From: Eubacteriales bacterium
GTDB taxonomy: Bacteria > Bacillota > Clostridia > Oscillospirales > CAG-382
Assembly: GCA_045540015.1 (NCBI GenBank)
Contig: JAZQGP010000014.1
Location: forward strand, 2,850 to 66,849
Length of the DNA stretch: 64,000 nucleotides
Direction: 5' to 3'
Positions within the stretch are counted from its first letter, which is position 1. Every line of letters begins with the position of its first letter. The position numbers were made by a program, and so were the translations under genes. This document shows, piece after piece, positions 310 through 58,568 of the stretch. The notes below the pieces were generated by a model. The model searched no databases. It saw only the letters and a program-made list of their open reading frames with translations, and was not told the origin of the DNA.

Positions 310-320
310 AGTTGCGGTTT

Positions 321-388
321 CCCACGGCAGTGGGAAACCACAATTCAGCGCAAAACAGCCTCGGCGATAGCCGACAATGTAAACCGCA
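321..388 (+). repeat. Dispersed hairpin repeat, module E copy (GGCA-loop and GATA-loop hairpins)
   Basis: Contains CCCAC-GGCA-GTGGG and TCGGC-GATA-GCCGA hairpins. It is about 93% identical, by eye, to the reverse complement of 3039-3106. Related copies lie at 26348-26402 and 34085-34140. Confidence 0.8.
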
Positions 389-442
389 GTGAAAAAGCCA
401 TAAACTTAGTTTCATCCGTCAATAAAAAAGTTGTCTAAGTCC

Positions 443-2154: not shown

Positions 2155-2447
2155 CCTACTTTCTTGGAAGAAAGTAGGCAAAGAACTTTTCATTGGTGAA
2201 ATTGAAGTTTAAACAACTTCAATTTCACGGAACTTTCTTGACGATTAAAGCTTAGCAAAAACTTTTCATTGGTGACATCGAAGTCTGAACAACTTCGATG
2301 TCACGTTGTATATTTAGGCGGAATCTGAGAACGAGGTTGTTTAAAGCTCGTTTTCAGCGTGAAACGGACGCAGTCCGCGCTTTTTGAAAAAAGCTTAGCA
2401 AAAACTTTTCATTGGTGAAATTGAAGTCTGAACAACTTCGATGTCAC
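2155..2447 (+). repeat. Dispersed repeat cluster: post-stop palindrome plus three module-A hairpins plus a module-B hairpin
   Basis: CCTACTTTCTT-GG-AAGAAAGTAGG (2155-2178) lies directly after the stop codon. Module-A hairpins are at 2196-2228, 2272-2304 and 2415-2447, each preceded by AAAGCTTAGCAAAAACTTTTCATTG. The module-B hairpin CTGAGAACGAG...CTCGTTTTCAG is at 2325-2357. Confidence 0.85.
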
Positions 2448-2602
2448 GTTTTAATTTCTATAACAACAACCCTTTTATTGATTTTTCTGCAATTATCAAT
2501 TACATGTTTTGTTCCCTTTGACGAGCCGTCCCAAAAAGCAAGCACAACATCTGATGCATTTATTATTTCAAGACCTCTTGAACCGATAATTGCAACTATC
2601 AT
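2444..2602 (-). pseudogene. Internally deleted remnant of a DUF2493/SLOG-like gene (52 codons)
   Basis: Below the track size cutoff. AGGAG lies 8 nt upstream of the ATG at 2602. The translation is MIVAIIGSRGLEIINASDVVLAFWDGSSKGTKHVIDNCRKINKRVVVIEIKT. It joins the N-terminal (I)IGSRG motif directly to the C-terminal AFWDGxSKGT motif, with the ~70 central residues of full-length family members missing. The stop codon lies inside the repeat hairpin at 2415-2447. Confidence 0.4.
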
Positions 2603-2934: not shown

Positions 2935-3180
2935 GTGGTGTCGTAAACCAAGTTTACAGTTTTTGTCTATCGGTGTTACACATCGTGCCTATCGGCAGGC
3001 AGTCATAAAGTGAATTTGCAGCTTTTGGCTACCGGCGGTGCGGTTTACATTGTCGGCTATCGCCGAGGCAGTTTTACGCTAAATTGTTGTTTCCCACTGC
3101 CGTGGGGGCGTTACCCTTTCTGTTTGCCCAGAAAGGTAACCGAAAGATGCCCACAAGTGAACCTACGGTTCCCTTATGCA
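2935..3180 (-). repeat. Dispersed hairpin repeat, modules D+E, reverse orientation
   Basis: Hairpins at 3053-3066 (GATA loop), 3093-3106 (GGCA loop), 3110-3140 and 3152-3178 (ACCGTAGGT loop) are collinear with 26276-26481 when read on the minus strand. Confidence 0.8.
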
Positions 3181-3407
3181 ACCCTCCCTAAAGCTCGCGG
3201 ACTCTCACGTTCTCGAAAACTTTAACCTGAGGAGATTTACGTTCTCCAATAAGGCTTCAATGTGCTTCGCTACGCGAGCTTGTTCTCAAGTGCCGTTTTG
3301 TTGCTTAGAGAATAAATAATCAACTACCTATCTTACACAAGAAAATTTAGTTTTTCGTTCAAATTTGTTGTAATGTTTACCATGAGGGTAGTTAAGCCAC
3401 CACGGCG

Positions 3408-3536
3408 AAAGAAGGGAAATCAGCGGAAGTTGGGAAGTTGAAATAGGGGTTTGCGGACATCTGAATTTGACCTCATTAATGGTCAAATTCAGCAAATTTC
3501 AGTATTGCATAACCCCAACTGAGCCATCCCTTCTTT
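3408..3536. other. Long imperfect hairpin (~130 nt) in an ORF-free region
   Basis: AAAGAAGGGA (3408-3417) pairs with TCCCTTCTTT (3527-3536). GGGGTT (3446-3451) pairs with AACCCC (3511-3516). The apical stem CTGAATTTGACC/GGTCAAATTCAG (3461-3492) is a perfect 12 bp. Confidence 0.5.
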
Positions 3537-3664
3537 TTGAGTGGGGAACTTTTGGTACTTTTCCTTCATTGGAAAAGTACGGAGAATGAAACCGTAGTTT
3601 CAAATTTGTATTTCTCGGTCGGTAAGGCAAAAAATCCCCCTTTAAACCTACCAAACATAAACTA

Positions 3665-9665: not shown

Positions 9666-12600
9666 ATGAAAAAAATCCTAAGTATTATCCTGTGTCTGTC
9701 GATGCTTATGTCAAGCGTTGCTTTTGCTGCGCCTGTTAATATGGCACCGATTGATGTTGAGAGTGCTGTTGAAGAAACTCTCGCAGGACCCGAAATTGAA
9801 GCAGAGCTTTCCGCAATTCTCCCTGCTCTTGCACCCGTTTCAACTTATCCCGAAAACGGCGCTGCAGATGTCAGCCTCGGAGACATCGCGTATAAGGTAA
9901 CCTTCGACAAGGCTGTCAAAGCCGAAGATGTTACCCTTGAAAATCTCGCATCCGACTATGTTGGTGCTATCCACTTTGACAAGGATACCAACACCGTATA
10001 TCTCTTCCCGAAGACTGAATATAAGAATTATACATACGGATACGATGTGGGAACTACATTTAGCTTCCCCGAAATTAAATCGAATATTCCTACGGCTGAC
10101 GGACAGAACAGCCTCTATTTCCCTGCGGTTTCCTATACTATAGGCATGTCTCACGGTGATGACGGCGAGAACATGGTTCCGTACGGAAATATGGAATACG
10201 GATTTATTCCGATAGCTTCCGCTCATGTTACAGCAATTGAAGAGGAAGACGGAAACCATTATGTAAGTGTAACGAAAAATCCCTCATCAGGTAATAAGAA
10301 CTGGATATATATTTATGCTCCTGTTCACTTTGAACCCAACACGGAGTATAAGTATTCCTATAATGTTAAGGCTTTGGAGGTTGTTCCTGCAATTGCCGGT
10401 GTTGATAAATCTGCTGCGCGTACTACCATAAGATACTCGCCTTCCGACCACAGCGACAGAAAGACTCATAATGGAGATAGTAAGGCTATCTCTGTAGGCG
10501 GCGGATGGGTAACCGTAGGCGGCACTTATACTACAGGTGAAGTTACCTCTACCGCGGGTGACTCGCTTGCATGCTATGTTGAGCCTCCCAAGAACGGTGC
10601 CGGCCAGGAACAGGATGCATCAATGAATTACCTTATTGATAACATTGAGCTTATCAAGAAGGTTAAGCATACATTCTCGGCAGACAGCAGAACAACTCTT
10701 GTAGGTACTGCTCCTGCGACAATTTCCGGCTATAACGGAGATACGATTGCACTTCCTGCTACAACAGCATTTGAACCCAAGGACGACAGATGGGAAATTA
10801 CCGGCTGGACTGACGGAGAAAATTACTACATGCCCGGCGAAGAAATAACCGTTGACGGCGCTAAAAACTTTACTCCTTACCTTGAAACCGAATATAATGT
10901 ATTTAACATTTCGTTCTCGTCAGAGCAAACGGGTGTTACACTTCCCAGAGCTTTTGATATGTTTGAAGGCGATATTGTTGACCTTACAACTTCAGAGTAT
11001 CAGCCTTCAAAGCTTGGATACTGGTTTGACGGCTGGTCTGTAAAGGGCTCGGATGAGATTATCACCTCTTTGACTGTAACAGAGGACACCGAGCTTGTTG
11101 CAAACTTTACTCTCGTTACCGAATGGGACTTCAGAAAGAAGGCTCATTTTGACCAGTTGAATGCAGATAAATGTACTATTGAATACAGCCCGACCAGCGG
11201 TGTTATTGTAACGCCTACCAATATGGACAATATCATCAAACCCCTCAATCAGATGATTATCAATGCAGCTGATTACGGCACAATAGAGATGGTATTTGAT
11301 AAAAACATAACTTCTTTCGTATCAGAGAGCACAAGAAGTCTTGTTTTGCGTTATACCGAGCCTTCAAATCCACATGGTTGGAATGAAGCAAAGACTATAA
11401 GAGACTGTAAGTTTGACCGCTATGAAGGCGAGAACGGCATTGTTTTCAGATACGACATGACAACAAAGGATACATGGAAAGGTGATATCGGATATTTCAG
11501 AATCGACCCCGTGGATTCAATGGATAAATGGGCTTTGATAAGACTTACCCTTATCCCGAGTGAGGACATTGAAGCTGTTGAAATTACAGACCTTGATGAG
11601 CCTGAACTGAGAACAGAGCCTGATACAACGGTTTCTGTTCCTGCAGATGCAGACTATACTGTTCAGTCTGTTACATGGACTCCTGCAGTTGAAAGCATCT
11701 TTGCTCATGATACAGCGTATACCGCAAATGTTACATTGAAGTCAAATCCCGGATGCCGTTTCACAGCAGAAACTACTGCAACAATCAACGGTACAACCGT
11801 ACCCCTTATAATCAATGCAGATAAAACTGCAACAGTTTCCTATAAGTTCGCTGCAACGGCATCTCTTGCAGAAGTTACCGTAACTGCAGACAAGAGCGTT
11901 ACAACTATTGAGGGCGAGAATACACTCGACCTTTCCGCAACCGTTGCAACAGTTAACCCCGATGATACAATCGATACTGATGCTGTGACATGGGGCGTTG
12001 ACAATGAGAGCATCGCGGTTGTTGAAGGAAATGTTTTAAAGCCTCTTGATAACGGTACAGTAAAGGTTACCGCAACAAGTGTATATGACCCCACAAAGAC
12101 AGATTCCTTTACAGTTACTATATCGGGACTTACCCTTTACACTGTTACCTTTAACGCGGGTACAACAGCAACTGTTACAAATCTTCCCGATTCTATCAGA
12201 TGCAGAAGAGATGTTGACCTCAAGAGTATTGCAGCTCCTAAGAGAGACGGATATATCTTCCTCGGCTGGAAGACCGCTACCTATGCAGAAGAAACTGTTA
12301 ACAGCATCTTTGTAGAAGAAGATACGACTCTCTACGCAACATGGGCCGAAGGCGTAATTTACGATTTCTATACCATTCCGAGTGAAATTAAGTTTAATAA
12401 GTTTGATGTAGAGCATGATCCTGTTGCGGGAACAGTTAAGCTCACGACAAATACAGATGACCCGCAGATTGAAATTAATAAAGCCTACAATGCTTCAACT
12501 AAGACCGGAGGTGTTGTTGACGGACGTAAATTCAGCAAGATTGAAGTAAGACTTGCTTCTTCGGTTGCATGTAATGTAGGTACCTACTTTACATCTGTAG

Positions 12601-15600
12601 ATGCTGATACAGGAAACTATGTCAGCGCCGGCTACGGCACAAGTCCGACTCAGTATTTAGCCTCATGGAAATCAGGAACAAGCGGAGGCGGCTCACTTGA
12701 CAGCTTCTTTACATCTGTAATCGACTATTCCGCATATACACCCTGGACCACGGGTATTATCAATAGTATAAGAATGGACCCGCCGGATACAGAAGGTAAT
12801 GTTTATATCGTTGACTATATCCGCATGATGAATATTGTCGAGGAGTATGTTGATATCGCTGCAATTGACGCACCTGCTGTTATGGCAGAGGCTGCGACAA
12901 CTGCAGAAGCTCTTGCGGCAGGCAAGTTTGAAGTTAAGAAGGTAGAATGGGACAAGGAGCTCTTTGAGGGCAAGTATTTCTATGACAATACTGTATACAC
13001 GGCAAAGATTACCGTTGCTCCCAAGGCAGGAACCAAGGTTTCCGAAACCGCGGTTGCAACAGTCGGCGGCAAGGCAGCTACACTTTCCGACAACGGCGAC
13101 GGAACATACCTTGTTACTTATACATATCCCGCAACCGAGGATCTTACAGACGTTAAGGTTGTGATTGACGAAACAAATAACGCAATTACTACAGCCGACG
13201 GCAAGCTCACTCTTTCCGCAGAGGTTCTTGATGTTGAAACAAACGAGCCTATCTCAGAACAGGGTATTGTATGGACAGCAACGGGTTCTGTTGACGGAAG
13301 CTTCTCTATCGACGGAAACGTGCTTACAGCTATATATGATGACAATGATGTAACGGTTACCGCAACAAGCGTATATGACCGTACAAAATCTGCATCCTAT
13401 AAGATTACCATTTCAAACCAGATTCCTCCTTACACTCTTAAATTCCAGAACGGTACAAACGGGGTAGTTACTAACCTTCCTTCTGAATATAAGGGCAAGG
13501 GAACGGTAAAGCTTTCACAGTTCAAGAAGCCTGTAAGAGAAGGCTTTAGCTTCCTTGGATGGATGACAGATCCGAGAGGAACAGAAACTGTTGACAGCAT
13601 TGTTCTTAACAAGGATACAACCCTTGTTGCTAAATGGGTTTCCGGTCTGGTGTTTGAATTTAACACAGACGGAGACGCGGAAGGCTGGAAAGCCAATACT
13701 CCCAGTCACTTTAGTGAACTTGGCGTCAAAGATGGTTCATTAAACTTTACATCAGCAGTTGGTGACAACCAGCTTTACTTAACCGATATCAACCTCAATG
13801 CCGATGTTCATAAGAAGATAGAAGTAAGAATTTCTTCTAATACAGCTTCAAGCTTTGAGCTGTTCTTCAAGTCTACATATTGCTCAAATTATGCCGGAGG
13901 AGCAGCTAACAGTACCGGTGCGGGTTATTCTGCAACCGGTGCGGGAAAATATACAATTGTTACTTTCGATATGAGCAAGGTTGCAAACTGGAGAGGAACG
14001 GTTTCATCAATCCGTCTTGACCCTTCAACAAAAGCAGGTGTTAGTGCAAAGATTGACTATATCCGTATTGTGGAAGATGTTAACGAATATGTTGACATCA
14101 CAGGCATCACTGCTCCTGTTGCAAAGGCAGTTGCAGACACAAGCGCTGTAAGTGCGGATACTTCAAAGTATATCGTTAAGAGCGTAAGCTGGTCTCCTGC
14201 TCTTCTTTACAACGAGTATCATAACGGTGATACAGCATATACCGTAACCGTTAAGGTTGCAGCAGCAAACGGTGCAATTCTTTCTGACGGACCTTATGCT
14301 ACTATCAACGGAAAGACCGCAACCACAAAGGCTAACAGCGATGGAACGGTAGATGTTTCATATACATTCACCAAGACAGCATCTATAGAAAACACAGATG
14401 CTATTGACGTTAACCTTGTATTGAAGAAGGACGGCAATCCTTATACAAAGACCAAAAAGGTATTTGTAGGCGACAAGATGACAATTGACTTCAGCCTTGT
14501 TGAAAACATCGCCGGCGGTGTACGCTGGGTTGGCTGGGCAGAAGTTGACGGCGATCCTTCTACTATATTTGAGGGCGAATTCACCGCAGAAAGCGGAAAG
14601 AACAGAACTTTCTATGCTCAGTATGAGGATGTTCTTGGATTTGATTATACTAACAAGTATCACCAGAACAGAAATGCAGCATACAACGCAAAGCTTACCT
14701 TCAGCGAAGGCGCTGCAGTTGTTACGCCTAATTCCGCTACCGCAGATGCAAGGCTTGCAACAGATACAATGCATCTCTTGACTACCGATTATGCATATGC
14801 AGAAGTAGTATTTGATGCAGCTCTCAGCACAGGAATAACTGTTGATTCAGAGCCGAGTCTGTACTTCTCGTACTACACGGCAACTACCGCATTTGCAAAC
14901 GAGCGCAACGGAAAGCTTATTTCTGCCGAAGAAATTGAAGACGACGGAAGAAAGGCTATAAAGTTTACCTACGACCTCGCTTCCAACGACAACTGGAAGG
15001 GTTATATCGGCAAGTTTGCCATAGATCCTTACAACGGCACTCCTGCATGGGCAGTAAGAAGCATCAAGCTCATTCCCACAGAATATACGAACGAACCTAT
15101 TAACATTACGGGTATTGTTGCTCCCGAAACATGGGAAACTCCTAATACCGCAGTTGATAAGGGAACCAACTTTACAGTTAAGTCTGTTACATGGGATACA
15201 AGCGATCTCAATGACGCAGGCGCATACAAGCCTGAAACTGCATACTCAGTAACAGTTGTTGTAAAACCAGAAACAGGCTATAAGTTCAATCCCGAGGATG
15301 TTGCTCCCGTAACAATCAACGGTGCAACCGTTACAAGCGTAACTGTTAACACCGATGATAATACAATTACCGCGGTCGGCACATTCCCTGCAACACTGCC
15401 CTTCAAGGATATTGAAGTTACAGTTTCCGGTCCTGCAACAATTGCAAAAGCCGGACGTTACGAAACATACAAATATACAATTGAGACTGTTGACGGTTCT
15501 GCATTGCCTATGAACAAGGCAACCTTCGGAATATCCAAGATACTTGACGGAAACGGCGATGAGGTTGCACAGGCTGACTATGATGAATACGCAACCTTCG

Positions 15601-18600
15601 ATACAGCTACTTCAAGACTCTATCCTCTTCTCAACAGCACAGTTACAATCAGAGCAACAAGTGTATACAATCCCGCAGAATACGGCGAAATTACAGTTGT
15701 TGTTACAAACCAGAGAGAACAGCATCTGGTTACATATGATCTCAATACTACCGATGCTGTTACAGGCAGTGCTCCTGCTCCCGAATATGCATCCGGAGCA
15801 TTTACTCCTTCTAATTGTACAGCCACAAGAGACGGCTACTTCTTCTCAGGCTGGTCGCTTGAGCCGGATGATGCAAATACTGTTTCTACAGTAAATGTTA
15901 CCGGTGCAACAACCCTTTACGCAATCTGGGGTAAGGGTATAAGCTATGACTTTACAACATCTGCGATACCGAGCGAAATCAGATTCAACAGATTTGATGT
16001 ATTGCACGATACCGATGCAGGTGTTATCACGATTACTGCTAACGGAAACGACCCGCAGATGAATATCAATAAGGCATATTCCTCTGCATCCAAGACCGGT
16101 GGCGTTGCTGACGGACGCGTATATAAAAAGGTTGTTGTAAGAGTTTCTTCTGAAAAGCTGAGTACTTCATGGAGTATGTACTTTACTTCTGTGAATCCCG
16201 AGAACGACAAAGAAGCTGTCAGCCCCGGATATTCGAGTTCTAACCCCGGTCCGTATGTAAGCACTTTTAAAAGCCAGGCGCTTTCCGGTGGTTCGCTTGA
16301 CGACTTTACCATTGTTACGTTTGACTATTCTTCGTTTACACCCTGGACTACGGGTATTGTAAACTCCGTCAGAATGGACCCGCCGGATACAGCCGGAAAT
16401 GCGTATGCGATTGACTATATCAGATTTATATCTGATAACAGAGAGGTTGTATTTAACGCAAACGGCGGAGCAATAGATAACGGTGAAACCTATAAGATGA
16501 CTGCTGATGTCGGAACAAACAGCGTTCCTTTCACGCCCACAAGAGTAGGCTACGCCTTCATGGGCTGGTGCAAGAGCGCAGACGGTACAGGCAAGCTTTA
16601 TGGCGGAAACACAGTTAAGGTTGTTGACGATACTACCTTCTATGCAATCTGGGCACCTTCTGCAGACCTTTCCGATGAAAGCTCTGTAACAACAGAAGAT
16701 GAAGCAGATGCAGAAAACATAACTGTTACAGCAGATGAAGATAAGCTTTCCATCACAACAAGCGCAAATGCTGCTCCTGTTATCGCAATAGCAGATGCAA
16801 TGACTGTTGATGCTTCCTCTAACACTCTTCTTATTAAGCTTGACTACAGCTATAACTCGATGACAGATGACAAAATGTACATCAAGTTTACTGCCGGCGG
16901 CACAGAGTATACAGAAGAAATAAAGACAGGTCTTGCAAGCAAGCTTGATACAGACTACATTTCTGCAGATCTTTCCGGAATAGCAGACTTCAGCGGAGAT
17001 GTTGAAAATGTTTCACTTGTACTTCCCGAGGGTAAGATTAATAGTCTTAACATTTATGAGCTCTCGCTCACAAGTGCTGCTCTTGCAGAGAGCGCAATAG
17101 AAAGCTTCTATACAGGTGATATGGGTGTTTCATCGCCTGAGGTTACAATCGGCAACGGTGATGACGGTTCTGATCCCAAGACCTACGCTCCCACAACTCA
17201 GCCTGAAAATCCTGCAGGTACAGTGGGCGGCGGTTCTCAGCTCGGCGGCAGCGTTGGTACAAACAAGAACGATGTTGCAGGCGGAACAGGCTCAGGTACA
17301 ACAATGAAGGTTCCCGAAGCTACCGGTAATAATACAGGTACGGGAACAGGTACAGGTACAACAACACCTGTTGTATCAACTCCTGCAATTGAAAACAACT
17401 TTAAGTATATCAACGAGTTTAAAGCAGGCACCTTTACAGACGTTGTAAGTTCCGACTGGTTCTACGGCGACGTTGAAAAGTCCTATAAGCTTGGTCTTAT
17501 GAACGGTGTCGGCGGAACAACCTTTGATCCTAACGGCTCTGTTACAATTGCTCAGGCAATTACGGTAGCGGCAAGAATTCATTCAACCTGCGTAAAGAAG
17601 TCCGTACCTGATGCAAAGAGCGGAGAACAGTGGTATACTCCTTATGTGAACTATGCAATTGATGCAAAGATTATCACGAAGGGCCAGTTTGCTGACTATA
17701 CCGCAAAGGCAACAAGAAAGCAGGTAGCTCAGATATTTGCTAATTGCTCGCCTGCAGGATGGCTTAACACAATTAATATGTTTAATTCCATCCCCGATGT
17801 GACTTCCACAGATGCAGCATTCAGTGCAATCCTCTCGCTTTACAATGCAGGTATTCTCACTGGTATTGACGCAACCTATAAGTTCAACCCCAATGCAGAT
17901 ATCAAGCGAAGCGAAATGAGTGCTATCATTAACCGTGTTGCAATTCCCGAAAGCCGTATCAGAGTTGTAACAGATGTTGAAAAGAACGAAGCTGCATGGA
18001 TTGGTCTTACAACATGTGAAGACACAGCAAAGTCAGGCTTCTATGTAACTCAGACCAATAATTCACTTACAGTTGTTGACGATCCTACAAATCCCGATAA
18101 CAAGGTATTTAAGATTGATACAGTAAAAGACAGCAAGATTTGGTCGTACATCTGGCATAAGATGCGTCTTAAGGGTGGAGAAACTTATAAGATAGAATTT
18201 GATATATATCTTGTTTCTGCATATAACGGCGCAGCAGTTACCGAAACGAATATCGGTCTTAACTTCCGTTATGGTAACAAGGATCATGGCTTTGGTGCAG
18301 GAAAGATTGCTCCCGGCAAATGGGTTCATGTAAGCAAAGAACGCAAGATTGAGGACGGTTATACGTTTACTGCAGGAGATATGTTCGGTATTTATCTCGA
18401 TCCTGTAGATGATAAGGGATGTGTATACCTTGTAGATAACCTCTCTGTTATCCCTGCAAGCGGAAGCGCATCAATCGGTTCTTCCACAGGCAGCTCTTCA
18501 GGTTCTACCGCGACAGTAACTCCCAGCGCAAATTCAGTGAACTCCATTAAGTTTACAAGCGCTGATGATTTCAAAGCATACAACGTAGACGGTCTTACAG

Positions 18601-18938
18601 TAAACGGCTCCTTCAAGGGCAAGTCCACAACAGATGATGCGAACGTTGTTTATAAGACTAAGGTAAATCTTAATGCAAGCGAAATTAAGACCATTAAGAT
18701 TACCGCTAAAATCCCGAAGGGCAAATCTGCAGAAATTTTCTTCACAACAGACGCGGAAAAAGGTCTTTCCGGAGATAAGAGATACGGATTCTCTTCCACT
18801 TCCGATGATGTAGCAACTTATACAATTGATACATCCAAGTGTGCAAAGTGGACAGGAACCATCCTGGAATTCAGATTTGACCCCGTTGTAGGTGCAGGTC
18901 TCAATTTTGAATGGCTCGCAATCGAATTCTGCAAATAA
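9666..18938 (+). CDS. Giant (3090 aa) secreted, SLH-anchored multidomain cell-surface protein
   Basis: Signal peptide MKKILSIILCLSMLMSSVAFA/AP. Listeria-Bacteroides (Flg_new) repeats are present (RDGYIFLGWKT, REGFSFLGWMTD, RDGYFFSGWSLE, RVGYAFMGWCKS), along with Big_2-like modules. About seven copies of a ~150-aa domain end in W-x-G-x(4-5)-R-x-DP. Three SLH motifs and a CBM_4_9-like module follow, and a strong terminator closes the gene. Confidence 0.9.
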   Translation: MKKILSIILCLSMLMSSVAFAAPVNMAPIDVESAVEETLAGPEIEAELSAILPALAPVSTYPENGAADVSLGDIAYKVTFDKAVKAEDVTLENLASDYVGAIHFDKDTNTVYLFPKTEYKNYTYGYDVGTTFSFPEIKSNIPTADGQNSLYFPAVSYTIGMSHGDDGENMVPYGNMEYGFIPIASAHVTAIEEEDGNHYVSVTKNPSSGNKNWIYIYAPVHFEPNTEYKYSYNVKALEVVPAIAGVDKSAARTTIRYSPSDHSDRKTHNGDSKAISVGGGWVTVGGTYTTGEVTSTAGDSLACYVEPPKNGAGQEQDASMNYLIDNIELIKKVKHTFSADSRTTLVGTAPATISGYNGDTIALPATTAFEPKDDRWEITGWTDGENYYMPGEEITVDGAKNFTPYLETEYNVFNISFSSEQTGVTLPRAFDMFEGDIVDLTTSEYQPSKLGYWFDGWSVKGSDEIITSLTVTEDTELVANFTLVTEWDFRKKAHFDQLNADKCTIEYSPTSGVIVTPTNMDNIIKPLNQMIINAADYGTIEMVFDKNITSFVSESTRSLVLRYTEPSNPHGWNEAKTIRDCKFDRYEGENGIVFRYDMTTKDTWKGDIGYFRIDPVDSMDKWALIRLTLIPSEDIEAVEITDLDEPELRTEPDTTVSVPADADYTVQSVTWTPAVESIFAHDTAYTANVTLKSNPGCRFTAETTATINGTTVPLIINADKTATVSYKFAATASLAEVTVTADKSVTTIEGENTLDLSATVATVNPDDTIDTDAVTWGVDNESIAVVEGNVLKPLDNGTVKVTATSVYDPTKTDSFTVTISGLTLYTVTFNAGTTATVTNLPDSIRCRRDVDLKSIAAPKRDGYIFLGWKTATYAEETVNSIFVEEDTTLYATWAEGVIYDFYTIPSEIKFNKFDVEHDPVAGTVKLTTNTDDPQIEINKAYNASTKTGGVVDGRKFSKIEVRLASSVACNVGTYFTSVDADTGNYVSAGYGTSPTQYLASWKSGTSGGGSLDSFFTSVIDYSAYTPWTTGIINSIRMDPPDTEGNVYIVDYIRMMNIVEEYVDIAAIDAPAVMAEAATTAEALAAGKFEVKKVEWDKELFEGKYFYDNTVYTAKITVAPKAGTKVSETAVATVGGKAATLSDNGDGTYLVTYTYPATEDLTDVKVVIDETNNAITTADGKLTLSAEVLDVETNEPISEQGIVWTATGSVDGSFSIDGNVLTAIYDDNDVTVTATSVYDRTKSASYKITISNQIPPYTLKFQNGTNGVVTNLPSEYKGKGTVKLSQFKKPVREGFSFLGWMTDPRGTETVDSIVLNKDTTLVAKWVSGLVFEFNTDGDAEGWKANTPSHFSELGVKDGSLNFTSAVGDNQLYLTDINLNADVHKKIEVRISSNTASSFELFFKSTYCSNYAGGAANSTGAGYSATGAGKYTIVTFDMSKVANWRGTVSSIRLDPSTKAGVSAKIDYIRIVEDVNEYVDITGITAPVAKAVADTSAVSADTSKYIVKSVSWSPALLYNEYHNGDTAYTVTVKVAAANGAILSDGPYATINGKTATTKANSDGTVDVSYTFTKTASIENTDAIDVNLVLKKDGNPYTKTKKVFVGDKMTIDFSLVENIAGGVRWVGWAEVDGDPSTIFEGEFTAESGKNRTFYAQYEDVLGFDYTNKYHQNRNAAYNAKLTFSEGAAVVTPNSATADARLATDTMHLLTTDYAYAEVVFDAALSTGITVDSEPSLYFSYYTATTAFANERNGKLISAEEIEDDGRKAIKFTYDLASNDNWKGYIGKFAIDPYNGTPAWAVRSIKLIPTEYTNEPINITGIVAPETWETPNTAVDKGTNFTVKSVTWDTSDLNDAGAYKPETAYSVTVVVKPETGYKFNPEDVAPVTINGATVTSVTVNTDDNTITAVGTFPATLPFKDIEVTVSGPATIAKAGRYETYKYTIETVDGSALPMNKATFGISKILDGNGDEVAQADYDEYATFDTATSRLYPLLNSTVTIRATSVYNPAEYGEITVVVTNQREQHLVTYDLNTTDAVTGSAPAPEYASGAFTPSNCTATRDGYFFSGWSLEPDDANTVSTVNVTGATTLYAIWGKGISYDFTTSAIPSEIRFNRFDVLHDTDAGVITITANGNDPQMNINKAYSSASKTGGVADGRVYKKVVVRVSSEKLSTSWSMYFTSVNPENDKEAVSPGYSSSNPGPYVSTFKSQALSGGSLDDFTIVTFDYSSFTPWTTGIVNSVRMDPPDTAGNAYAIDYIRFISDNREVVFNANGGAIDNGETYKMTADVGTNSVPFTPTRVGYAFMGWCKSADGTGKLYGGNTVKVVDDTTFYAIWAPSADLSDESSVTTEDEADAENITVTADEDKLSITTSANAAPVIAIADAMTVDASSNTLLIKLDYSYNSMTDDKMYIKFTAGGTEYTEEIKTGLASKLDTDYISADLSGIADFSGDVENVSLVLPEGKINSLNIYELSLTSAALAESAIESFYTGDMGVSSPEVTIGNGDDGSDPKTYAPTTQPENPAGTVGGGSQLGGSVGTNKNDVAGGTGSGTTMKVPEATGNNTGTGTGTGTTTPVVSTPAIENNFKYINEFKAGTFTDVVSSDWFYGDVEKSYKLGLMNGVGGTTFDPNGSVTIAQAITVAARIHSTCVKKSVPDAKSGEQWYTPYVNYAIDAKIITKGQFADYTAKATRKQVAQIFANCSPAGWLNTINMFNSIPDVTSTDAAFSAILSLYNAGILTGIDATYKFNPNADIKRSEMSAIINRVAIPESRIRVVTDVEKNEAAWIGLTTCEDTAKSGFYVTQTNNSLTVVDDPTNPDNKVFKIDTVKDSKIWSYIWHKMRLKGGETYKIEFDIYLVSAYNGAAVTETNIGLNFRYGNKDHGFGAGKIAPGKWVHVSKERKIEDGYTFTAGDMFGIYLDPVDDKGCVYLVDNLSVIPASGSASIGSSTGSSSGSTATVTPSANSVNSIKFTSADDFKAYNVDGLTVNGSFKGKSTTDDANVVYKTKVNLNASEIKTIKITAKIPKGKSAEIFFTTDAEKGLSGDKRYGFSSTSDDVATYTIDTSKCAKWTGTILEFRFDPVVGAGLNFEWLAIEFCK
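11576..16440 (+). repeat. Intragenic tandem super-repeats (four units of ~1.0-1.3 kb) within the giant gene
   Basis: Units start near 11576, 12850, 14091 and 15100, each opening with (V/I)(E/D/N)IT..I.AP. The segments 12360-12840 and 15940-16440 are the closest paralogues at DNA level and share, for example, AGAATGGACCCGCCGGATACAG. Confidence 0.75.
17430..17960 (+). other. Three SLH (S-layer homology) motifs, placed internally in the giant protein
   Basis: FTDVVSSDWFYGDVEKSYKLGLMNGVGGTTFDPNGSVTIAQA; WYTPYVNYAIDAKIITKGQF...ATRKQVAQI; IPDVTSTDAAFSAILSLYNAGILTGID...IKRSEMSAIINRV. Confidence 0.8.
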
Positions 18939-24530: not shown

Positions 24531-24688
24531 TCATAGCATTTTATGATGTTGATTAAAAAATTGCTTGCAATATGCGCATAAATATGGTAGAATATATCAG
24601 TTAAAGCTGAACATCATAGAATAAATGTTAAATTGAAGTCGTTTAGACTTCAATTTAACAAATTAAAAATGTGCAAAGGGGAATGATT

Positions 24689-25992: not shown

Positions 25993-26485
25993 CCGCTTTC
26001 TTGAAAGAAAGCTTGGCAAAGAACTTTTCATTGGTGAAATTGACGTTTGAACAACATCACGCTTTTTGAAAAAAGCTTAGCAAAAACTTTTAAACGGTGA
26101 AATTGACGTTTGAACAACATCAATTTCAGAATTGCTCAATCAGTGCAGCTTTGCCATCTTACAAGTAATCGCCGTAAGCTATGGAAGCCGGGCTGAAAGA
26201 CCAAACAGGTTTAAGATGAGGAATAAACTTTTAAAAAAAGTAAGATAGAAAGGCGTCGGCGACAAGGGAAGAATACATAAGGAAACCGTAGGTGTCCTTA
26301 TGGGTGCTCTTTTGCCTACTTATCTGCACAAGCAGAAAAGTAGGGCCTCCACGGCAGTGGAAAGCTACAAATTTGGTTTATGCCCACCTCGGCGATAGCC
26401 GACCATTATCAATAGAAAGAGTAACGCCCCACGGCAGTGGAAAACTGCAAATACAGTTTATGACTTCCTGCCGTCAGGCAGAATG
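25993..26485 (+). repeat. Composite dispersed repeat (post-stop palindrome, 2x module A, modules C, D, E), forward copy
   Basis: Palindrome at 25995-26012. Hairpins at 26276-26302, 26315-26345, 26348-26361, 26389-26402, 26429-26440 and 26468-26481. 26050-26183 is the exact reverse complement of 34302-34435. Confidence 0.9.
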
Positions 26486-26545
26486 AGAAATCAAATTTTT
26501 GTATATTAAAGAATGGAATGTGACATGAAAGTTGTTTAAACTTTT

Positions 26546-27382
26546 ATGTCACCAATCAAAAATATGAAGCAGAGAATTTTGACGGGAATAGCTCTTGTTC
26601 TCGCTATGATTTGCGTGTTCCTGCTTTCGGGAACATGGGTTTACATTGCCTTTTGCAGCCTGCTGTCGGTTTTTGGCACATGGGAAATGCTGGGCTGTGT
26701 AGGCAAACTCAAAACAAGAATACTTTCAGTTCCGGCGCTGATAATTTCGGCGGCGTGTCCTCTTTGCGCTCATTTTGTCGGAATGCAGTCGCTTCCTGTG
26801 ATGCTTTCTGGACTGCTGTTTTATATGCTTGTTGTTTCCGTGTTCACGGCAGACAGCATTGATACGCAGTCAGTTTCAACGGCGTTTACGACTACGGCGT
26901 ATGTTATAATCTGCTTTACATGTCTTCTTCAGCTTCGCTATATTGCGGACGCAGACGGAAATACAGTGGGACAGTATTTTTACCTGCTTGTATTTGTTGC
27001 GGCATGGATAACGGACACGTTTGCGTATTTTACGGGTGTTTTCTTCGGAAAGCACAAGCTGATACCTCGTGTCAGTCCAAAAAAGACTGTTGAGGGTGCT
27101 GTCGGCGGAATTGTTTTCTGTGTTATTGCGTTTCTTGTATATGCAAAGGTTCTCACAAGTGTATCGGATATACAAGTGAATTACGTTGCTTTTGCAATTT
27201 TCGGACTGTGCCTTTCGGTGCTTTCGCAGATTGGCGATTTGCTTGCATCTGCCATAAAACGCAGCTACGGTATAAAGGACTACGGAAAGCTTTTTCCCGG
27301 CCACGGCGGTGTGCTTGACAGGTTTGACAGTATTATGGTGCTGTGTCCGGTGCTGTATATTTGTATTGGAATTCTAATATGA
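26546..27382 (+). CDS. cdsA: Phosphatidate cytidylyltransferase
   Basis: Signature SAIKRSYGIKDYGKLFPGHGGVLDRFDS in a polytopic protein. The start may instead be the M at 26564. Confidence 0.9.
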   Translation: MSPIKNMKQRILTGIALVLAMICVFLLSGTWVYIAFCSLLSVFGTWEMLGCVGKLKTRILSVPALIISAACPLCAHFVGMQSLPVMLSGLLFYMLVVSVFTADSIDTQSVSTAFTTTAYVIICFTCLLQLRYIADADGNTVGQYFYLLVFVAAWITDTFAYFTGVFFGKHKLIPRVSPKKTVEGAVGGIVFCVIAFLVYAKVLTSVSDIQVNYVAFAIFGLCLSVLSQIGDLLASAIKRSYGIKDYGKLFPGHGGVLDRFDSIMVLCPVLYICIGILI

Positions 27383-33989: not shown

Positions 33990-34020
33990 TTTAGCTTGCA
34001 TAAATAAAAAATGCTTTTTT

Positions 34021-34049
34021 AAACCGCAGTCGAAAGGCTGCGGTTTTTG
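34021..34049 (+). terminator. Rho-independent terminator after rplL
   Basis: AAACCGCAG-TCGAAAGG-CTGCGGTTT followed by TTGC. Confidence 0.8.
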
Positions 34050-34084
34050 CTATGTTATCCACTGACGTGAAGACAGTTTACATC

Positions 34085-34492
34085 GCGGCTATCGCCGGAG
34101 AGTCATAATCCAAGTTTATGGCTTTTCACTCTGCCGAGAGCGTTCATTTTCTGTTCGCCCAGAAAATGAACCAAAAGATGCGACTAAGAGCACCTACGGT
34201 TCTCTTAGTTATCTCTCCCTTATCGCCGACGCCTTTCTATCTTACTTTTTTAAAAAGTCTACCCATCATCTCAAACCTGTTCGGTCTTTTCTTCCGGCTC
34301 TCATAGCTTACGGCGATTACTTGTAAGATGGCAAAGCTGCACTGATTGAGCAATTCTGAAATTGATGTTGTTCAAACGTCAATTTCACCGTTTAAAAGTT
34401 TTTGCTAAGCTTTTTTCAAAAAGCGTGATGTTGTTTAAACATCAATTTCACCGATGGAAAGTTCTTTGCTAAGCTTTCTTTCAAGAAAGCGT
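34085..34492 (-). repeat. Composite dispersed repeat, reverse copy (inverted partner of 25993-26485)
   Basis: Same module order when read on the minus strand. Hairpins at 34085-34098, 34127-34140, 34142-34171 and 34183-34209. Palindrome at 34473-34490. 34302-34435 is the exact reverse complement of 26050-26183. Confidence 0.9.
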
Positions 34493-38284: not shown

Positions 38285-39016
38285 ATGTCCGGACATTCCA
38301 AATGGAAAAACATTATGCACAAGAAGGAAAAAACCGACCTTCAGCGTGCAAAGGTATTTACAAAAATCGGTAAGGAAATAGCAATGGCAGTACGCGACGG
38401 CGGTCCCGACCCCGTTTCCAACACAAAGCTTCGTGACCTTATTGCAAAGGCTAAGGCTAACAATGTGCCTAACGACAATATTGAGCGTACCATCAAAAAA
38501 GCATCCGGTGCGGACGGCTCCGTTAACTACGAGGTTATCGTATACGAAGGTTACGGACCGAGCGGCGTTGCGGTTATTGTTGAAACAACCACCGACAACA
38601 GAAACAGAACGGGTGCAGACATGAGGCATTATTTTGACAAATTTGGCGGAAATCTCGGTCAGACAGGCTGTGTATCATACATGTTCTCCGACAAGGGTGT
38701 TATTGCCATTGACGGAGAGGGTATTGACGAAGAAAAGCTCATGGAGGATGCTCTTGAAGCGGGTGCCGACGACATTTCCGGAGAAGACGGAATTTTTGAG
38801 GTTACAACAGACCCGTCTGAATTCTCGGCTGTCACCGAAGCGCTCACCGAAAAGGGCTACAAGTTTATTTCGGCAGAGCAGTCCAAAGTTCCTGCAAACT
38901 ATGTAACTCTTACTGACGAGGATGCCATCAAAAACATGACAAAGCTTCTTGATATGTTTGACGAAAATGACGACGTTACCAACGTCTGGCACAACTGCGA
39001 CAACGACGATTTTTAA
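38285..39016 (+). CDS. yebC: YebC/PmpR family DNA-binding transcriptional regulator
   Basis: MSGHSKWKNIMHKKEKTDLQRAKVFTKIGKEI signature. Confidence 0.95.
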   Translation: MSGHSKWKNIMHKKEKTDLQRAKVFTKIGKEIAMAVRDGGPDPVSNTKLRDLIAKAKANNVPNDNIERTIKKASGADGSVNYEVIVYEGYGPSGVAVIVETTTDNRNRTGADMRHYFDKFGGNLGQTGCVSYMFSDKGVIAIDGEGIDEEKLMEDALEAGADDISGEDGIFEVTTDPSEFSAVTEALTEKGYKFISAEQSKVPANYVTLTDEDAIKNMTKLLDMFDENDDVTNVWHNCDNDDF

Positions 39017-39059
39017 AAAAAGCTTAGCAAAAATTTTTGATTGGTGAAATTGAAGTTTG

Positions 39060-39226
39060 AACAACTTCAATTTCACAATACTTCCTCAAGAAGCCAAACA
39101 TTAATTTTTAACAACTTCAATTTCACAATACTTCCTCAAGAAGCCAAACATTAATTTTTAACAACTTCAATTTCACAATACTTCCTCAAGAAGCTAAACA
39201 TTGATTTTTAACAACATCAATTTCAC
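39060..39226 (+). repeat. 50-bp tandem repeat, 3.3 units, seeded from the 3' arm of a module-A hairpin
   Basis: The unit AACAACTTCAATTTCACAATACTTCCTCAAGAAGCCAAACATTAATTTTT starts at 39060, 39110 and 39160, with a partial unit at 39210. The first two units are identical, the third has 2 changes, and the partial fourth unit (17 nt) has one change. A complete module-A hairpin sits at 39044-39076. Confidence 0.9.
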
Positions 39227-39352
39227 AAAAACGTTTTATTCGTGCAGAAGCCGAAAACGAGGTTGTTAAAAGGTGGTTTTCAGCAAGGAACATACGCAAT
39301 GTGCATTTCCAACTCCTAATTTCTAATTCCTAATTTCATCAAAGGTGACATC

Positions 39353-47724: not shown

Positions 47725-47795
47725 TTACTTTCTTAGAAGAAAGTAAGCAAAGATTTTTTGAACAGAGACATTGAAGTTTAAACAACTTCAATGTC
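47725..47795 (+). repeat. Dispersed repeat: post-gene palindrome plus a module-A hairpin
   Basis: TTACTTTCTT-AG-AAGAAAGTAA (47725-47746) and GACATTGAAGTT-TAAAC-AACTTCAATGTC (47767-47795). Confidence 0.8.
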
Positions 47796-48048
47796 ACACT
47801 GCGTTTCATTGTTGTTACGCTTGAAGTTTGAATGACTTTAGTATCCCGTTATACCTGTCAGCAAGGAGTTACAAGCCGTGTTTGAGGCTTACGTGTTTTT
47901 GCTGCTTTTCGCCCGATAGCGCAGCCAAAACGTCAAAGCATAGTGTATTATCTTAACTCTTTTGCTGATTTTTACACTTTACAATATAAAAAAATATGGT
48001 ACAATAATACTATAAACCACAAATTTCGGTGATATTGGAGGTATAAAA

Positions 48049-50651: not shown

Positions 50652-50726
50652 TGAAATGAATAAATGTAAATCCCGTAAAATCGGAAATTGTTATATACAG
50701 CAAAATACATTTCAGAGGTGAAAACC

Positions 50727-53255: not shown

Positions 53256-54040
53256 TGGATATATATAATGTAAAAGGTAGAATATTTGATATACAAAAGT
53301 TTTCGGTTCATGATGGCCCGGGAATAAGGACAATTGTGTTTTTAAAGGGTTGTGCACTAAGGTGTAAATGGTGCTGTAATCCCGAATCACAATCTCATGA
53401 CATAGAGAACATGAGCACACCGGACGGTAACAAAACCGTAGGCAAAGATGTGACAGTCGGCGAGGTAATTACAGATATTCTAAAAGACCGCCCCTACTTT
53501 CGCCGTTCGGGCGGAGGGATAACACTTTCCGGAGGCGAAACCTTGCTTCAAAGCGAATTTGCACTTGCACTCTTTAAAGCAGCAAAGGAAAACGGCATCA
53601 GCACTGCCATAGAATCAACCGGCTTTGCCAAATACGAAATTATAGAAAAGCTATTGCCCTATATAGATGTGTTTTTGATGGATATAAAGCACACAAACTC
53701 CCAAAAGCACAGAGAGTTTACCACTCAGCCAAATGAGCTGATACTGGAAAACGCCCGGAAAATTGCCAAAAATGCAAATGAGCTTATAATAAGAGTTCCC
53801 GTAATACCCACATTTAACGACACTGTCGAGGAGATAACGGATATAGCTGAGTTTACAAAGAGTCTTGGAAGCGTAAATGAGCTTCATCTGCTCCCTTACC
53901 ACAGACTCGGCGAGGACAAATACACCTACCTCGGCAGAAATTATGAATTAAGGCATATAACTACACCCTCGGACGATACGATGCAAAAACTTAAAAATGC
54001 GGTTGAAAGCTGCGGACTTAAGTGTCAAATCGGCGGCTGA
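53255..54040 (+). CDS. Glycyl-radical enzyme activating enzyme (radical SAM)
   Basis: CALRCKWCCNPES cluster motif. The start overlaps the GRE stop codon. Confidence 0.9.
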   Translation: MDIYNVKGRIFDIQKFSVHDGPGIRTIVFLKGCALRCKWCCNPESQSHDIENMSTPDGNKTVGKDVTVGEVITDILKDRPYFRRSGGGITLSGGETLLQSEFALALFKAAKENGISTAIESTGFAKYEIIEKLLPYIDVFLMDIKHTNSQKHREFTTQPNELILENARKIAKNANELIIRVPVIPTFNDTVEEITDIAEFTKSLGSVNELHLLPYHRLGEDKYTYLGRNYELRHITTPSDDTMQKLKNAVESCGLKCQIGG

Positions 54041-54054
54041 AGAAAGGAAATAAA

Positions 54055-54423
54055 ATGGACAGACTATCACTTCAGGACAAAATGAGAATAGTTCAGGAAA
54101 TAGTACCGGGCAAGCAGATAACACTGATGCACATAATTGCAAATCCCGACGATGTACTCTACCAAAAGCTCGGTCTAGACACCTCGGAGGACTATAACAA
54201 AGGTGCTATCGGCGTAATGACGGTATCGCCGAGCGAAACAGTAATAATCGCAGGTGATATCGCAATAAAGGCATCGGGTGCAGAAATTGGTTTTGTAGAC
54301 AGATTCAGCGGCACCCTCATAATAACAGGTACGGTATCATCTGTTCAGGCGGCATTTGACGCTGTGAGGGATTACACTCAAAACACCCTTGGCTACGAAG
54401 TGTGCGCCGTGACAAAGACATGA
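54055..54423 (+). CDS. BMC shell protein, circularly permuted PduU/EutS type
   Basis: RIVQEIVPGKQITLMHIIANP...VSPSETVIIAGDIAIKASGAEIGFVDRFSGTLIITG. Confidence 0.8.
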   Translation: MDRLSLQDKMRIVQEIVPGKQITLMHIIANPDDVLYQKLGLDTSEDYNKGAIGVMTVSPSETVIIAGDIAIKASGAEIGFVDRFSGTLIITGTVSSVQAAFDAVRDYTQNTLGYEVCAVTKT

Positions 54424-54857
54424 TTAAGAAAAAACGCCTGATGCTCATAGGCAGAAGCGAAGCCGGCAAGACCACTCTTACACAGGCACTTCGCCAAAGA
54501 CCCATTGAGTACGAAAAAACCCAGTCTGTAAGCATGGATGAGCTTCTTATAGATACACCGGGTGAATACATACAAACCAAAAACTTTGGAACTGCACTTG
54601 CAATTTACTCATACGAGGCAGATGTTATAGGGCTATTGCTTAGTGCTACCGAGGATTATTCTCTGTACAGCCCCAACATAACCTGCATGACTACCAAAGA
54701 AGTAATCGGCATCATAACAAAGATAGACCACAAAAACGCAAATATTCAAAACGCAGAAAAGTGGTTAAAACTTGCCGGATGCAAAAAAATCTTTAGGGTA
54801 AACTCGCTTGCAAGCCAAGGCATTGACGAAATTAAAGCACATTTGGGTTGGATTTAA
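54420..54857 (+). CDS. EutP/PduV family small GTPase
   Basis: P-loop GRSEAGKTTL and DTPGEY. ATGA overlap with the upstream gene. Confidence 0.85.
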   Translation: MIKKKRLMLIGRSEAGKTTLTQALRQRPIEYEKTQSVSMDELLIDTPGEYIQTKNFGTALAIYSYEADVIGLLLSATEDYSLYSPNITCMTTKEVIGIITKIDHKNANIQNAEKWLKLAGCKKIFRVNSLASQGIDEIKAHLGWI

Positions 54858-54907
54858 TTAAAACCAACAAAAACAAAGATAAAAAGTAAAAAAACCACAT
54901 TTTTGTA

Positions 54908-54936
54908 TTGACACTTTGTGTCGTATATGATATTAT
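54908..54936 (+). promoter_or_regulatory. Internal sigma-A promoter in the BMC locus
   Basis: TTGACA (54908-54913), a 17-nt spacer, extended -10 TGaTATTAT (54928-36). Confidence 0.5.
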
Positions 54937-54975
54937 TACAATATAGGTTAAAATTTTTTATAAGGAGATATAGAT

Positions 54976-55782: not shown

Positions 55783-55797
55783 GCACGGGGTGACACT

Positions 55798-57863: not shown

Positions 57864-57882
57864 ATTTTAGGAGGATATAACA

Positions 57883-58158: not shown

Positions 58159-58251
58159 TTAAAGGCGGAATACAAAATGGCTACATCAAAAACCACGAAA
58201 AAAACCACTAAGACAGCAGAAGTTGTCAATACCGTTAAGGAGGAAAAGAAA

Positions 58252-58530: not shown

Positions 58531-58568
58531 TCCCACCCCCTACATTAATCTTAATACGAGGTGATATT

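Follow-up and report, generated by a model that had tools for sequence, protein, structure and literature searches.

Intergenic hairpin repeats with fixed loops and co-varying stems form an undescribed modular family in a spore-forming Clostridium-class organism

Proteobacteria and streptococci have well-characterised dispersed hairpin repeats. The BIMEs of Enterobacteria, made of REP (PU) units, are intergenic mosaics of palindromic units and other short conserved motifs; the number and order of their modules vary, they often lie downstream of genes and in opposite orientations, and they are sites of rearrangement. BOX elements of Streptococcus pneumoniae (boxA-boxB(n)-boxC) are non-autonomous modular repeats of a Firmicute, with a fixed head, variable tandem internal units and a predicted stable secondary structure, found near genes in either orientation. 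In the REPIN/RAYT systems of Pseudomonas and E. coli, short non-coding palindromes spread within a genome and form inverted doublets that fold into long hairpins. Integron attC sites and the ends of IS200/IS605 elements conserve structure rather than stem sequence, and have one active strand, on which alone mismatches are tolerated. Finally, the intergenic palindromes of Mimiviridae, which under the 'hairpin rule' sit at transcript 3' ends, are described as gene-specific.

The window analysed here, a 64-kb stretch of DNA, is chromosomal DNA of a spore-forming Clostridium-class organism and carries spo0A, spoIIR, pyrH, frr, cdsA, rplJL, several tRNA synthetases and a glycyl-radical microcompartment locus. 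Its repeats are an undescribed, non-coding modular family of hairpins with fixed loops and co-varying stems. Three long copies (c1, c2 and c3) and one partial copy (c4) can be read in it directly, which bears out both the coordinates and stems that a sequence-only reading had given for the long copies and the partial copy it had placed at 321-417 (plus strand, units only). The head of a long copy, 85-95 nt in length, runs from the purine block AGGGA (AGGGAR) through hairpin 1 (apex AACC-GTA-GGT) and the pyrimidine block TCTTT to hairpin 2. Downstream of it are one to three tandem units of about 65-80 nt, each with three mini-hairpins whose loops, by self-comparison and a unit profile, are in order GGCA, a variable loop, and GATA or GTCA. 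The full order is one or two A modules that follow directly on a stop codon, an arm of about 130 nt, the head and the units, so that whole elements are modular and 250-650 nt long. An A module is a weak hairpin (GCTTTCTT..AAGAAAGC), the stretch CAAAGAACTTTT and a palindrome of about 33 nt with an asymmetric fixed centre, GTTTGAACAAC (GTYTRAACAAC in the palindrome table). The features of the window are:

25996-26132, plus strand: c1 A modules, two in tandem, the first starting 4 nt past the frr stop codon (repeat family D1, self-BLAST, palindrome table)
26133-26261, plus strand: c1 5' arm, 91 % identical to the c2 arm, holding CTTACAAGTAATCGCCGTAAGCTAT and GGCGTCGGCGAC, both also in loci L235 and L234 of other genomes
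26262-26347, plus strand: c1 head (covariance model R1, 61.5 bits, E 7e-11), with AGGGA at 26265-26269, hairpin 1 at 26276-26302, TCTTT at 26308-26312 and hairpin 2 at 26315-26345
26347-26491, plus strand: c1 units, two in tandem (26347-26427 and 26427-26491; unit HMM E 1e-16), with mini-hairpins CAC-GGCA-GTG, a variable middle one, then GGC-GATA-GCC in unit 1 and GCC-GTCA-GGC in unit 2 (loop table)
26517-26563, minus strand: inverted half A module, palindrome GTGACAT..ATGTCAC plus CAATCAAAAA (inverted repeats I5, I8, I10 and I12)
34224-34491, minus strand: c2 A modules, two (34357-34491), and 5' arm, the inverted partner of 25994-26261
34139-34223, minus strand: c2 head (R1, 58.5 bits), with AGGGA at 34220-34216, hairpin 1 at 34209-34183, TCTTT at 34178-34174 and hairpin 2 at 34171-34142
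34047-34139, minus strand: c2 units, one full (34074-34139) and one truncated (CAC-GTCA-GTG), adjoining the rplL terminator at 34015-34045 (unit HMM)
3107-3192, minus strand: c3 head (R1, 60.0 bits), with AGGGA at 3189-3185, hairpin 1 at 3178-3152, TCTTT at 3147-3143 and hairpin 2 at 3140-3110
2935-3107, minus strand: c3 units, three, progressively degenerate (3040-3107, 2974-3038 and 2935-2972; unit HMM)
320-412, plus strand: c4, partial copy without a head; one full unit, 94 % identical to a c3 unit (I3, 68 nt), then a truncated unit
3540-3610, plus strand: degenerate, rearranged head fragment; CTTTTGGTACTTTTCC..GGAAAAGTAC (hairpin-2-like), then GAAAC-CGTA-GTTTC (hairpin-1-like apex)

Two details of the sequence-only reading are refined by this. 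The conserved loop that it assigned to hairpin 1 is real, but the 'loop' itself pairs as ACC/GGT around a GTA triloop; and the mini-hairpins that it placed in every copy with GGCA and GATA loops are present, but the second unit of c1 has a GTCA loop in place of GATA. The first mini-hairpin of c2 reads CTC-GGCA-GAG, a correction to the earlier description. Copies c1 and c2 share a 5' arm in inverted orientation (25994-26300 and 34185-34491; 307 nt, 91 % identical), which opens with the A modules, a repeat family in their own right. Their self-BLAST alignment covers 410 nt at 85 %, with identity falling abruptly at hairpin 1 from 91 % to about 70 %. The inverted half A module at 26517-26563 ends the 553-nt frr-cdsA spacer, immediately 5' of the likely cdsA start, and c1 is bracketed by inverted A-module palindromes. 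The c3 unit array stops at a bidirectional terminator-like hairpin (2897-2916), the c4 units are joined directly to half an A module, and the head fragment at 3540-3610 sits in a stretch of about 260 nt that recurs in L235 (window 3382-3644, L235 5652-5891). Against chance expectations of 0.16, 0.12 and 0.00, the window holds five matches to CCACGGCAGTGGRAA, four to CGGCGATAGCCG and three to the head pattern AGGGAR..RAACCGTAGGTK..TCTTT.

All window copies are intergenic. Copy c1 occupies the frr-cdsA spacer in the orientation of both genes, c2 follows immediately on the rplL terminator and runs antisense to the genes on either side, c3 falls between convergent genes, and c4 is upstream of an ACT-domain gene. 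The copies occur in both orientations relative to genes, and in both within 8 kb, with two inward-facing inverted pairs bracketing genes (c1/c2 around 7.9 kb and c4/c3 around ACT-DUF711). The A modules start 2-4 nt after stop codons. Among the roughly 55 ORFs scanned in the window there is no transposase, as had been claimed, nor any integrase or reverse transcriptase. Consensus scans gave no promoter or terminator belonging to the element above chance, and ARAGORN found no tRNA-like structure.

Set beside the described systems, the family has the traits given above for BIMEs, without any sequence similarity to them; its units are longer, with loops rather than stems conserved, the foot of the stem carries no GTAG or CGTC tag, the family belongs to a Firmicute, and no RAYT was seen. 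It likewise shares the listed traits of BOX, but its sequence is unrelated, no terminal boxC-like module was found, and its head is common to several genera and, in part, to giant viruses. Inverted doublets folding into long hairpins, as in REPINs, occur at L222, L234 and in Flavonifractor, and here too short non-coding palindromes have spread inside a genome; unlike REPINs, however, solo copies are common here, the elements are several hundred nucleotides long and the position of the GTAG differs. The conservation of structure over stem sequence and the single mismatch-tolerant strand recall attC and the IS200/IS605 ends, whereas attC carries its R and L boxes at the stem base with extrahelical bases and here the loop is the conserved part; neither an integrase nor a TnpA lies near the window copies. 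As for the Mimiviridae palindromes, a related 35-nt hairpin does lie between giant-virus genes, often followed directly by AAAATTGA, but it is one conserved family, present about 138 times in 414 kb, with members in bacteria and archaea as well.

Taken as single strands, the long copies are predicted to fold more stably than shuffled sequence (z = -4.4, -4.6 and -1.9), and in the three window copies alone 12 of 47 predicted pairs show two-sided compensation. A hand-made structural alignment of 11 heads (A3) has 97.8 % of cells paired and two-sided changes in 15 of 30 pairs. The covariance model R1, built from A3, found 22 heads, 20 of them distinct; in the model-derived alignment (A5) 97.2 % of the 542 pair cells of these 20 heads are paired, and two-sided changes again affect 15 of 30 pairs, although both alignments were fitted to the structure, which favours pairing, and the cells count sequences rather than independent events. 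Two-sided cells number 90, as against 26 ± 5 after shuffling (0 of 500 shuffles reach the observed value) and 1-11 in controls with slid partners. The varying pairs comprise 7 of 11 in hairpin 1 and 8 of 14 in hairpin 2, whose stems, as the sequence-only reading had it, differ and stay complementary; the loop AACC-GTA-GGT and the TTTCT/AGAAA core are invariant. Its broader claims, that structure is preserved through sequence change and that the copies are not decaying duplicates, hold on the larger sample. In the pattern that retrieved the copies from other genera, AGGGAR, the apex and TCTTT are held constant, so that conservation of those blocks is partly by construction; the copies of close strains (L235 and L237-L239), found via flanking genes, keep all three. 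The stems change freely, with pairing and loop sequences kept.

Mismatches are tolerated on one strand only. G·T/G·U accounts for 50 of the 542 cells and A·C for none, which indicates that one strand, here called forward, folds or is under constraint. Of the wobble cells, 42 sit in the weak AGGGA/TCTTT helix, where G·U and G-C exchange, while hairpin 2 contains Watson-Crick pairs only. Predicted stability is equal for the forward and reverse strands.

The family matches no catalogued RNA. Rfam 15 gave no gathering-score match on the elements in the window or in 17 related loci, in keeping with the earlier statement that no named ncRNA family could be recognised, and permissive scans (E ≤ 10) of the three copies and one viral relative returned only chance-level miRNA and snoRNA matches; a known ncRNA is ruled out on this basis. 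Several other identities were rejected. A peptide encoded through the head is contradicted by start codons and a reading frame that are not conserved; a CRISPR, a type III antitoxin array or an integron, by the lack of spacers, toxin or integrase; a sequencing adaptor artefact, by variable stems and the normal gene context of the copies; and IS607 ends, by the lack of a match to the motifs in PMC6188088. Nothing relevant to the motif sequence turned up in the literature searched. As a search pattern CCACGGCAGTGGRAA was too short (118 chance loci), the pattern GGCGATAGCCGN{2,3}ATGTAAAC returned five loci and a single metagenome scan ten, all unrelated. No match came from three scans of viral sequences, for which unit, A-module or arm patterns were used, or from BLAST comparison of the elements with plasmids and phages. 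Spurious ORFs over the repeats gave no candidates as protein queries, and exact look-ups of the frr, ACT and ParA proteins found no record.

The 22 heads of the covariance model lie in the window, in related strains (97-99 %) and in two further multi-copy Clostridia MAGs. Scanning other genomes with a head pattern that leaves the stems free located six copies in 'Clostridia MAG55' and seven in 'Flavonifractor sp. MGBC117744'. All seven Flavonifractor copies lie at contig ends, as expected for high-copy repeats. A 2.8-kb contig binned as Paraprevotella, from the same scan, carries two heads that are close to c2 and share the arm sequence of the window. The 520 nt upstream in Flavonifractor form one very long imperfect hairpin (z = -13.9) and so point to outward-facing inverted dimers, which are also found at L222 and L234. 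Module order is conserved in four genomes. About 7 of 11 scored copies point at a downstream co-oriented gene, and seven copies (c1, c4, L216b, L218, L225, L219 and L229) have a co-oriented gene or leader 60-110 nt downstream of them. The neighbours (frr/cdsA, rplL/parA, an rRNA methylase, gyrA, pdp and a T-box leader) are functionally unrelated, and the constant orientation or position and the coherent gene set by which a cis-regulatory RNA is recognised were not seen.

Between relatives, modules are gained, lost and re-joined, and they mark breaks of synteny. The frr-cdsA spacer is 553 nt in the window and 18 nt in the closest genome, the best frr match in the genome collection being 87 %, and no copy was found around frr in 80 loci of relatives. 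A metagenome contig with an identical RplL (L214) has the same terminator and the same outer arm, with an A module in place of the window's hairpins 1 and 2. Through homologues of the DUF711 protein, contigs could be compared from strains that are 99 %, 97 % and 89-92 % identical. In the 99 % identical strain (L235), DUF711 is followed by A-A-B, as against A-A and other sequence in the window; the 97 % strains have heads at other positions; and in the 89-92 % relatives the spacer past DUF711 is 57-110 nt, with no model match. The neighbours of the ACT-DUF711 pair differ in all three close lineages, with repeats at each junction. Presence and absence thus vary at orthologous sites, as in mobile repeats: insertion sites are empty in more distant relatives, and their content differs even between 99 % identical strains. 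This comparison supports the earlier view of the elements as non-autonomous, whether mobile or recombining. Filled and empty sites have no spacer sequence in common that would reveal ends or duplications, and neither a target-site duplication nor a terminal inverted repeat is definable for the element. Transposition is accordingly not separated from spread by recombination or gene conversion, as no element boundary is defined.

We consider it about an even bet (probability roughly 0.5) that the element is a non-autonomous, modular, mosaic intergenic repeat, like BIMEs, BOX or REPINs, of an uncultured gut Oscillospiraceae lineage, and that a single strand of it, probably ssDNA, is read through its loops. 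In this model, the active form would be a single strand, exposed at replication or in single-strand transposition, whose hairpin loops are read by a trans-acting protein encoded outside the window, a candidate being a transposase or recombinase or another hairpin-binding factor. The search for a mobilising enzyme covered about 64 kb of this genome and short contigs of relatives, in which none was seen. Homologous recombination between copies would reshuffle both the modules and the neighbouring genes. When co-transcribed, the hairpins probably also serve as 3'-end or UTR structures, which would be a side effect and not the reason for their spread.

The composition of the loops bears on which nucleic acid is read. 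In the loop table the mini-hairpin loops are all C-GNA-G or C-GNNA-G (GTA, GCA, GGCA, GATA and GTCA), with a pyrimidine at the third position. Loops of this form are exceptionally stable in DNA mini-hairpins and are not the GNRA loops of RNA. From this general knowledge of loop stability, ssDNA appears more likely than RNA as the active form. The occurrence of both orientations and the variation between near-identical strains at housekeeping loci also lean towards ssDNA, while the G·U-rich AGGGA/TCTTT helix and the roughly 7 of 11 copies aimed at a downstream gene lean towards RNA.

These latter signals belong to the rival that survives best, although we regard it as rather unlikely: that the elements are structured RNAs acting in cis, either as 3'-UTR stabilisers or terminators after frr and DUF711 or as 5'-leader modules, and have spread because the RNA is useful. 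The wobble and exchange pattern of the forward strand would suit such an RNA, and fixed loops on free stems are typical of protein-bound RNA hairpins; against this, both strands fold equally well, and the pyrimidine at loop position 3 is at odds with GNRA. The seven copies at 60-110 nt from co-oriented genes or leaders, and A modules that open close behind stop codons, speak for this reading, but c2 is antisense to both of its neighbours and c3 convergent with its own, the downstream genes have no function in common, promoter and terminator signals do not exceed chance, and presence differs at housekeeping loci between strains that are 99 % identical. One leader version would have a boxB hairpin and a boxA-like GCTCTTT direct processive antitermination ahead of cdsA, gyrA, pdp or the T-box gene; the G(C/T)TCTTT between hairpins 1 and 2 bears a resemblance to the boxA of antiterminators. 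In the rrn boxB-boxA antiterminator, boxA is bound by NusB/NusE and lies downstream of the promoter, co-oriented with the operon. Here, agreement with a GCTCTTTAACAA-like consensus is limited to G(C/T)TCTTT, followed by a different 3' half (TGGTWAC), and TCTTT is fixed by the retrieval pattern.

An improbable variant of mobility would make the elements substrates of a Y1 (HUH) transposase encoded elsewhere in the genome, either REP/REPIN-type repeats moved by a RAYT or gene-less derivatives of IS200/IS605 (PATEs). Strand-specific hairpins that tolerate G·T, REPIN-like inverted dimers and copies downstream of genes and adjoining terminators would all be expected of such substrates; a GTAG tetranucleotide is invariant in the hairpin-1 apex, and in viral relatives tandem slippage begins at GTAGG. 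However, a REP is a palindrome of 20-40 bp with an unpaired GTAG (or CGTC) tetramer at the end of its stem (PMC3733652), and here the GTAG is inside the apical loop (ACC-GTA-GGT) of modular elements that are 250-650 nt rather than 20-40 nt long. Nor do the elements have the two similar sub-terminal hairpins in the same orientation that define the ends of IS200/IS605 PATEs, hairpins 1 and 2 and the unit hairpins being different from one another. Both orientations occur inside 8 kb, and there is no Y1 gene in the window or in any of the other loci retrieved. Least probable of all is a functionless origin as segmental duplicates spread by recombination, their stems restored without selection by intrastrand template switching (quasi-palindrome correction): mosaic junctions inside palindromes, the abrupt drop in c1-c2 identity, the purely Watson-Crick hairpin 2 and a few viral copies with a flipped apex fit it, but it leaves unexplained the loops invariant across genera, the asymmetry of G·T and A·C, the 33 of 35 identities between the hairpin-1 module and giant-virus copies, and the module order kept in four genomes.

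The hairpin-1 module extends well beyond the Clostridia. A scan of a viral collection with the head pattern, its gaps slightly widened, matched 46 loci, many of them giant-virus bins, and two control patterns, one with a scrambled apex and one with a different mini-hairpin apex, matched no viral locus. The viral consensus, AGGGAGGG(A/G)TCATA(A/G)GGGAACC-GTA-GGTTCCCTTA, is identical to c3 at 32 of 35 positions and to the L235 copy at 33 of 35; in the latter comparison the pattern leaves 17 positions free, and 15 of them agree. Chance would place the 9-nt apex about 6 times in the 414 kb of viral loci, and it is seen 138 times; pairing continues beyond the apex in 119 of these, 99 of which also have the upstream AGGGAR block. 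The viral copies show 45 G·T against 15 A·C, and 66 of 74 distinct ones have a purine-rich 5' arm. The genes beside them are usual for giant viruses (DNA ligase, DEAD helicase, RNR small subunit, RNase III). A genome scan found like hairpins, some in tandem, in a Gaiella MAG, a Bacteroidales MAG and three archaeal MAGs; the sequence of the viral and bacterial module was not found in the literature searched.

It is conceivable, if doubtful, that hairpin 1 and its purine leader (AGGGAGGGnTCATAAGGGAACC-GTA-GGTTCCCTTA) are a discrete 35-nt single-strand element, ancient or travelling horizontally, in giant viruses (Nucleocytoviricota bins), archaea, Actinobacteria, Bacteroidales and Clostridia, which would be read by a widespread factor and around which the Clostridial mosaics would have been built. 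More speculatively, the module might mimic the 3' end of small-subunit rRNA: its core AAGGNAACCGTAGG agrees at 13 of 14 positions with the universally conserved 16S 3' end, a comparison chosen after the fact and equalled by about 0.2 % of shuffles.

To our knowledge, hardly any work has addressed dispersed hairpin repeats in the uncultured Oscillospiraceae, which dominate metagenomes of the gut. In these organisms the repeats break assemblies and mark points of rearrangement and, because they differ between strains that are 99 % identical in their flanking genes, they should be useful strain markers and are a likely driver of synteny loss. The family is also an unusually clean case of fixed loops, freely co-varying stems and clear strand asymmetry, and together these make it directly testable which protein would read the loops, and whether on DNA or RNA. 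If the match with giant viruses reflects common descent or transfer, the hairpin-1 module would be a small, undescribed element with a cross-domain host range.

Besides the head/unit elements, a second dispersed repeat family of about 70 nt per copy is found in the window and in two contigs of close strains (L214 and L235), and we refer to its members as A modules.

A modules by contig
Window: 2158-2450, 24627-24668, 25996-26132, 26517-26563, 34357-34491, 39006-39079 and 47727-47800
L214: 4060-4135
L235: 11364-11537 and 5967-6066

The A modules run from a weak hairpin, either GCTTTTTgaAAAAAGC or CCTACTTTCTT..AAGAAAGTAGG, through the stretch CAAAAACTTTT to a 33-nt palindrome, whose asymmetric centre, GTYTRAACAAC, is fixed and whose arms co-vary (e.g. 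GTGAAATTGAA, GTGACATCGAA and GTTAAATTGAA). The distance from the stop codon to the start of the module is 2-4 nt, and the starts of pyrH and cdsA are each directly preceded by a half copy. The right arm of the palindrome also opens every repeat of a tandem array (50-nt repeat AACAACTTCAATTTCACAATACTTCCTCAAGAAGCCAAACATTAATTTTT, three and a half copies) in the yebC-radC spacer, at window 39053-39228.

Hairpin 1 of the window family, which lies in its conserved head, is nearly identical to a 35-nt hairpin repeat, AGGGAGGGnTCATAAGGGAACC-GTA-GGTTCCCTTA, in which giant-virus contigs are rich (L249-L294, from IMG/VR and including many GVMAG bins); across 414 kb of these contigs, 138 occurrences of the apex were counted. 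Archaeal, Gaiella and Bacteroidales MAGs carry the repeat as well (L220, L223, L224, L226 and L230). In viruses, AAAATTGA often comes after the repeat; at some loci GTAGGTTCTCTTT has undergone tandem slippage, and the apex is flipped in a few copies. A 2.8-kb contig binned as Paraprevotella (Bacteroidota; L234, JAFOXE010000038.1) contains two heads near-identical to that of window copy c2, together with sequence of the window arm, the stretch 5' of the head; either the contig has been assigned to the wrong bin or the element is shared across phyla.

Two tentative, post hoc comparisons concern the hairpin 1 region. The hairpin sequence AAGG(A/G)AACCGTAGG (window 26280-26293 and equivalents) agrees at 13 of 14 positions with AAGGTAACCGTAGG, the universally conserved 3' end of 16S rRNA, and the G(C/T)TCTTT that follows the hairpin resembles a boxA.

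A 1.5-kb repeat-rich island 3' of DUF711 holds two small ORFs.

Small ORFs of the island (window coordinates)
2444-2602, minus strand: 52 aa
2700-2891, plus strand: 63 aa

Neither ORF had a match in Pfam or NCBIfam; on visual inspection, the 52-aa product resembles part of a DprA/SLOG-type protein, and the 63-aa product a small DNA-binding protein. Between copy c3 and the rRNA methylase gene lies a non-coding stretch of about 260 nt (window 3382-3644), which had no match in Rfam and reappears in opposite orientation at L235 5652-5891 with 71 % identity. Within it lie the rearranged head fragment and a hairpin of considerable length (CTGAATTTGACC..GGTCAAATTCAG).

Elsewhere, window 9666-18938 encodes a surface protein of 3090 aa in which both Listeria-Bacteroides repeats and SLH domains occur; at the DNA level its gene contains repeats that are 54-99 nt long and 70-78 % identical. 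A glycyl-radical-enzyme microcompartment locus occupies 50688-63546.

Contents of the microcompartment locus
Enzymes and GTPase: PFL-like enzyme, activase, EutP/PduV GTPase, aldolase, alcohol dehydrogenase, aldehyde dehydrogenase, PduL
BMC shell genes: five, including a tandem pair, 79 % identical, at 57859-58527

Two inverted repeat pairs enclose segments of the window that contain genes. The first (25994-26300 and 34185-34491; 307 nt, 91 % identity) encloses 7.9 kb from cdsA to rplL, and the second (321-388 and 3039-3106; 68 nt, 94 % identity) encloses ACT-DUF711 and an island. Because gene order around both segments is changed in the close strains L214, L235 and L237 relative to the window, the comparison suggests that rearrangement at both has been mediated by the repeats.
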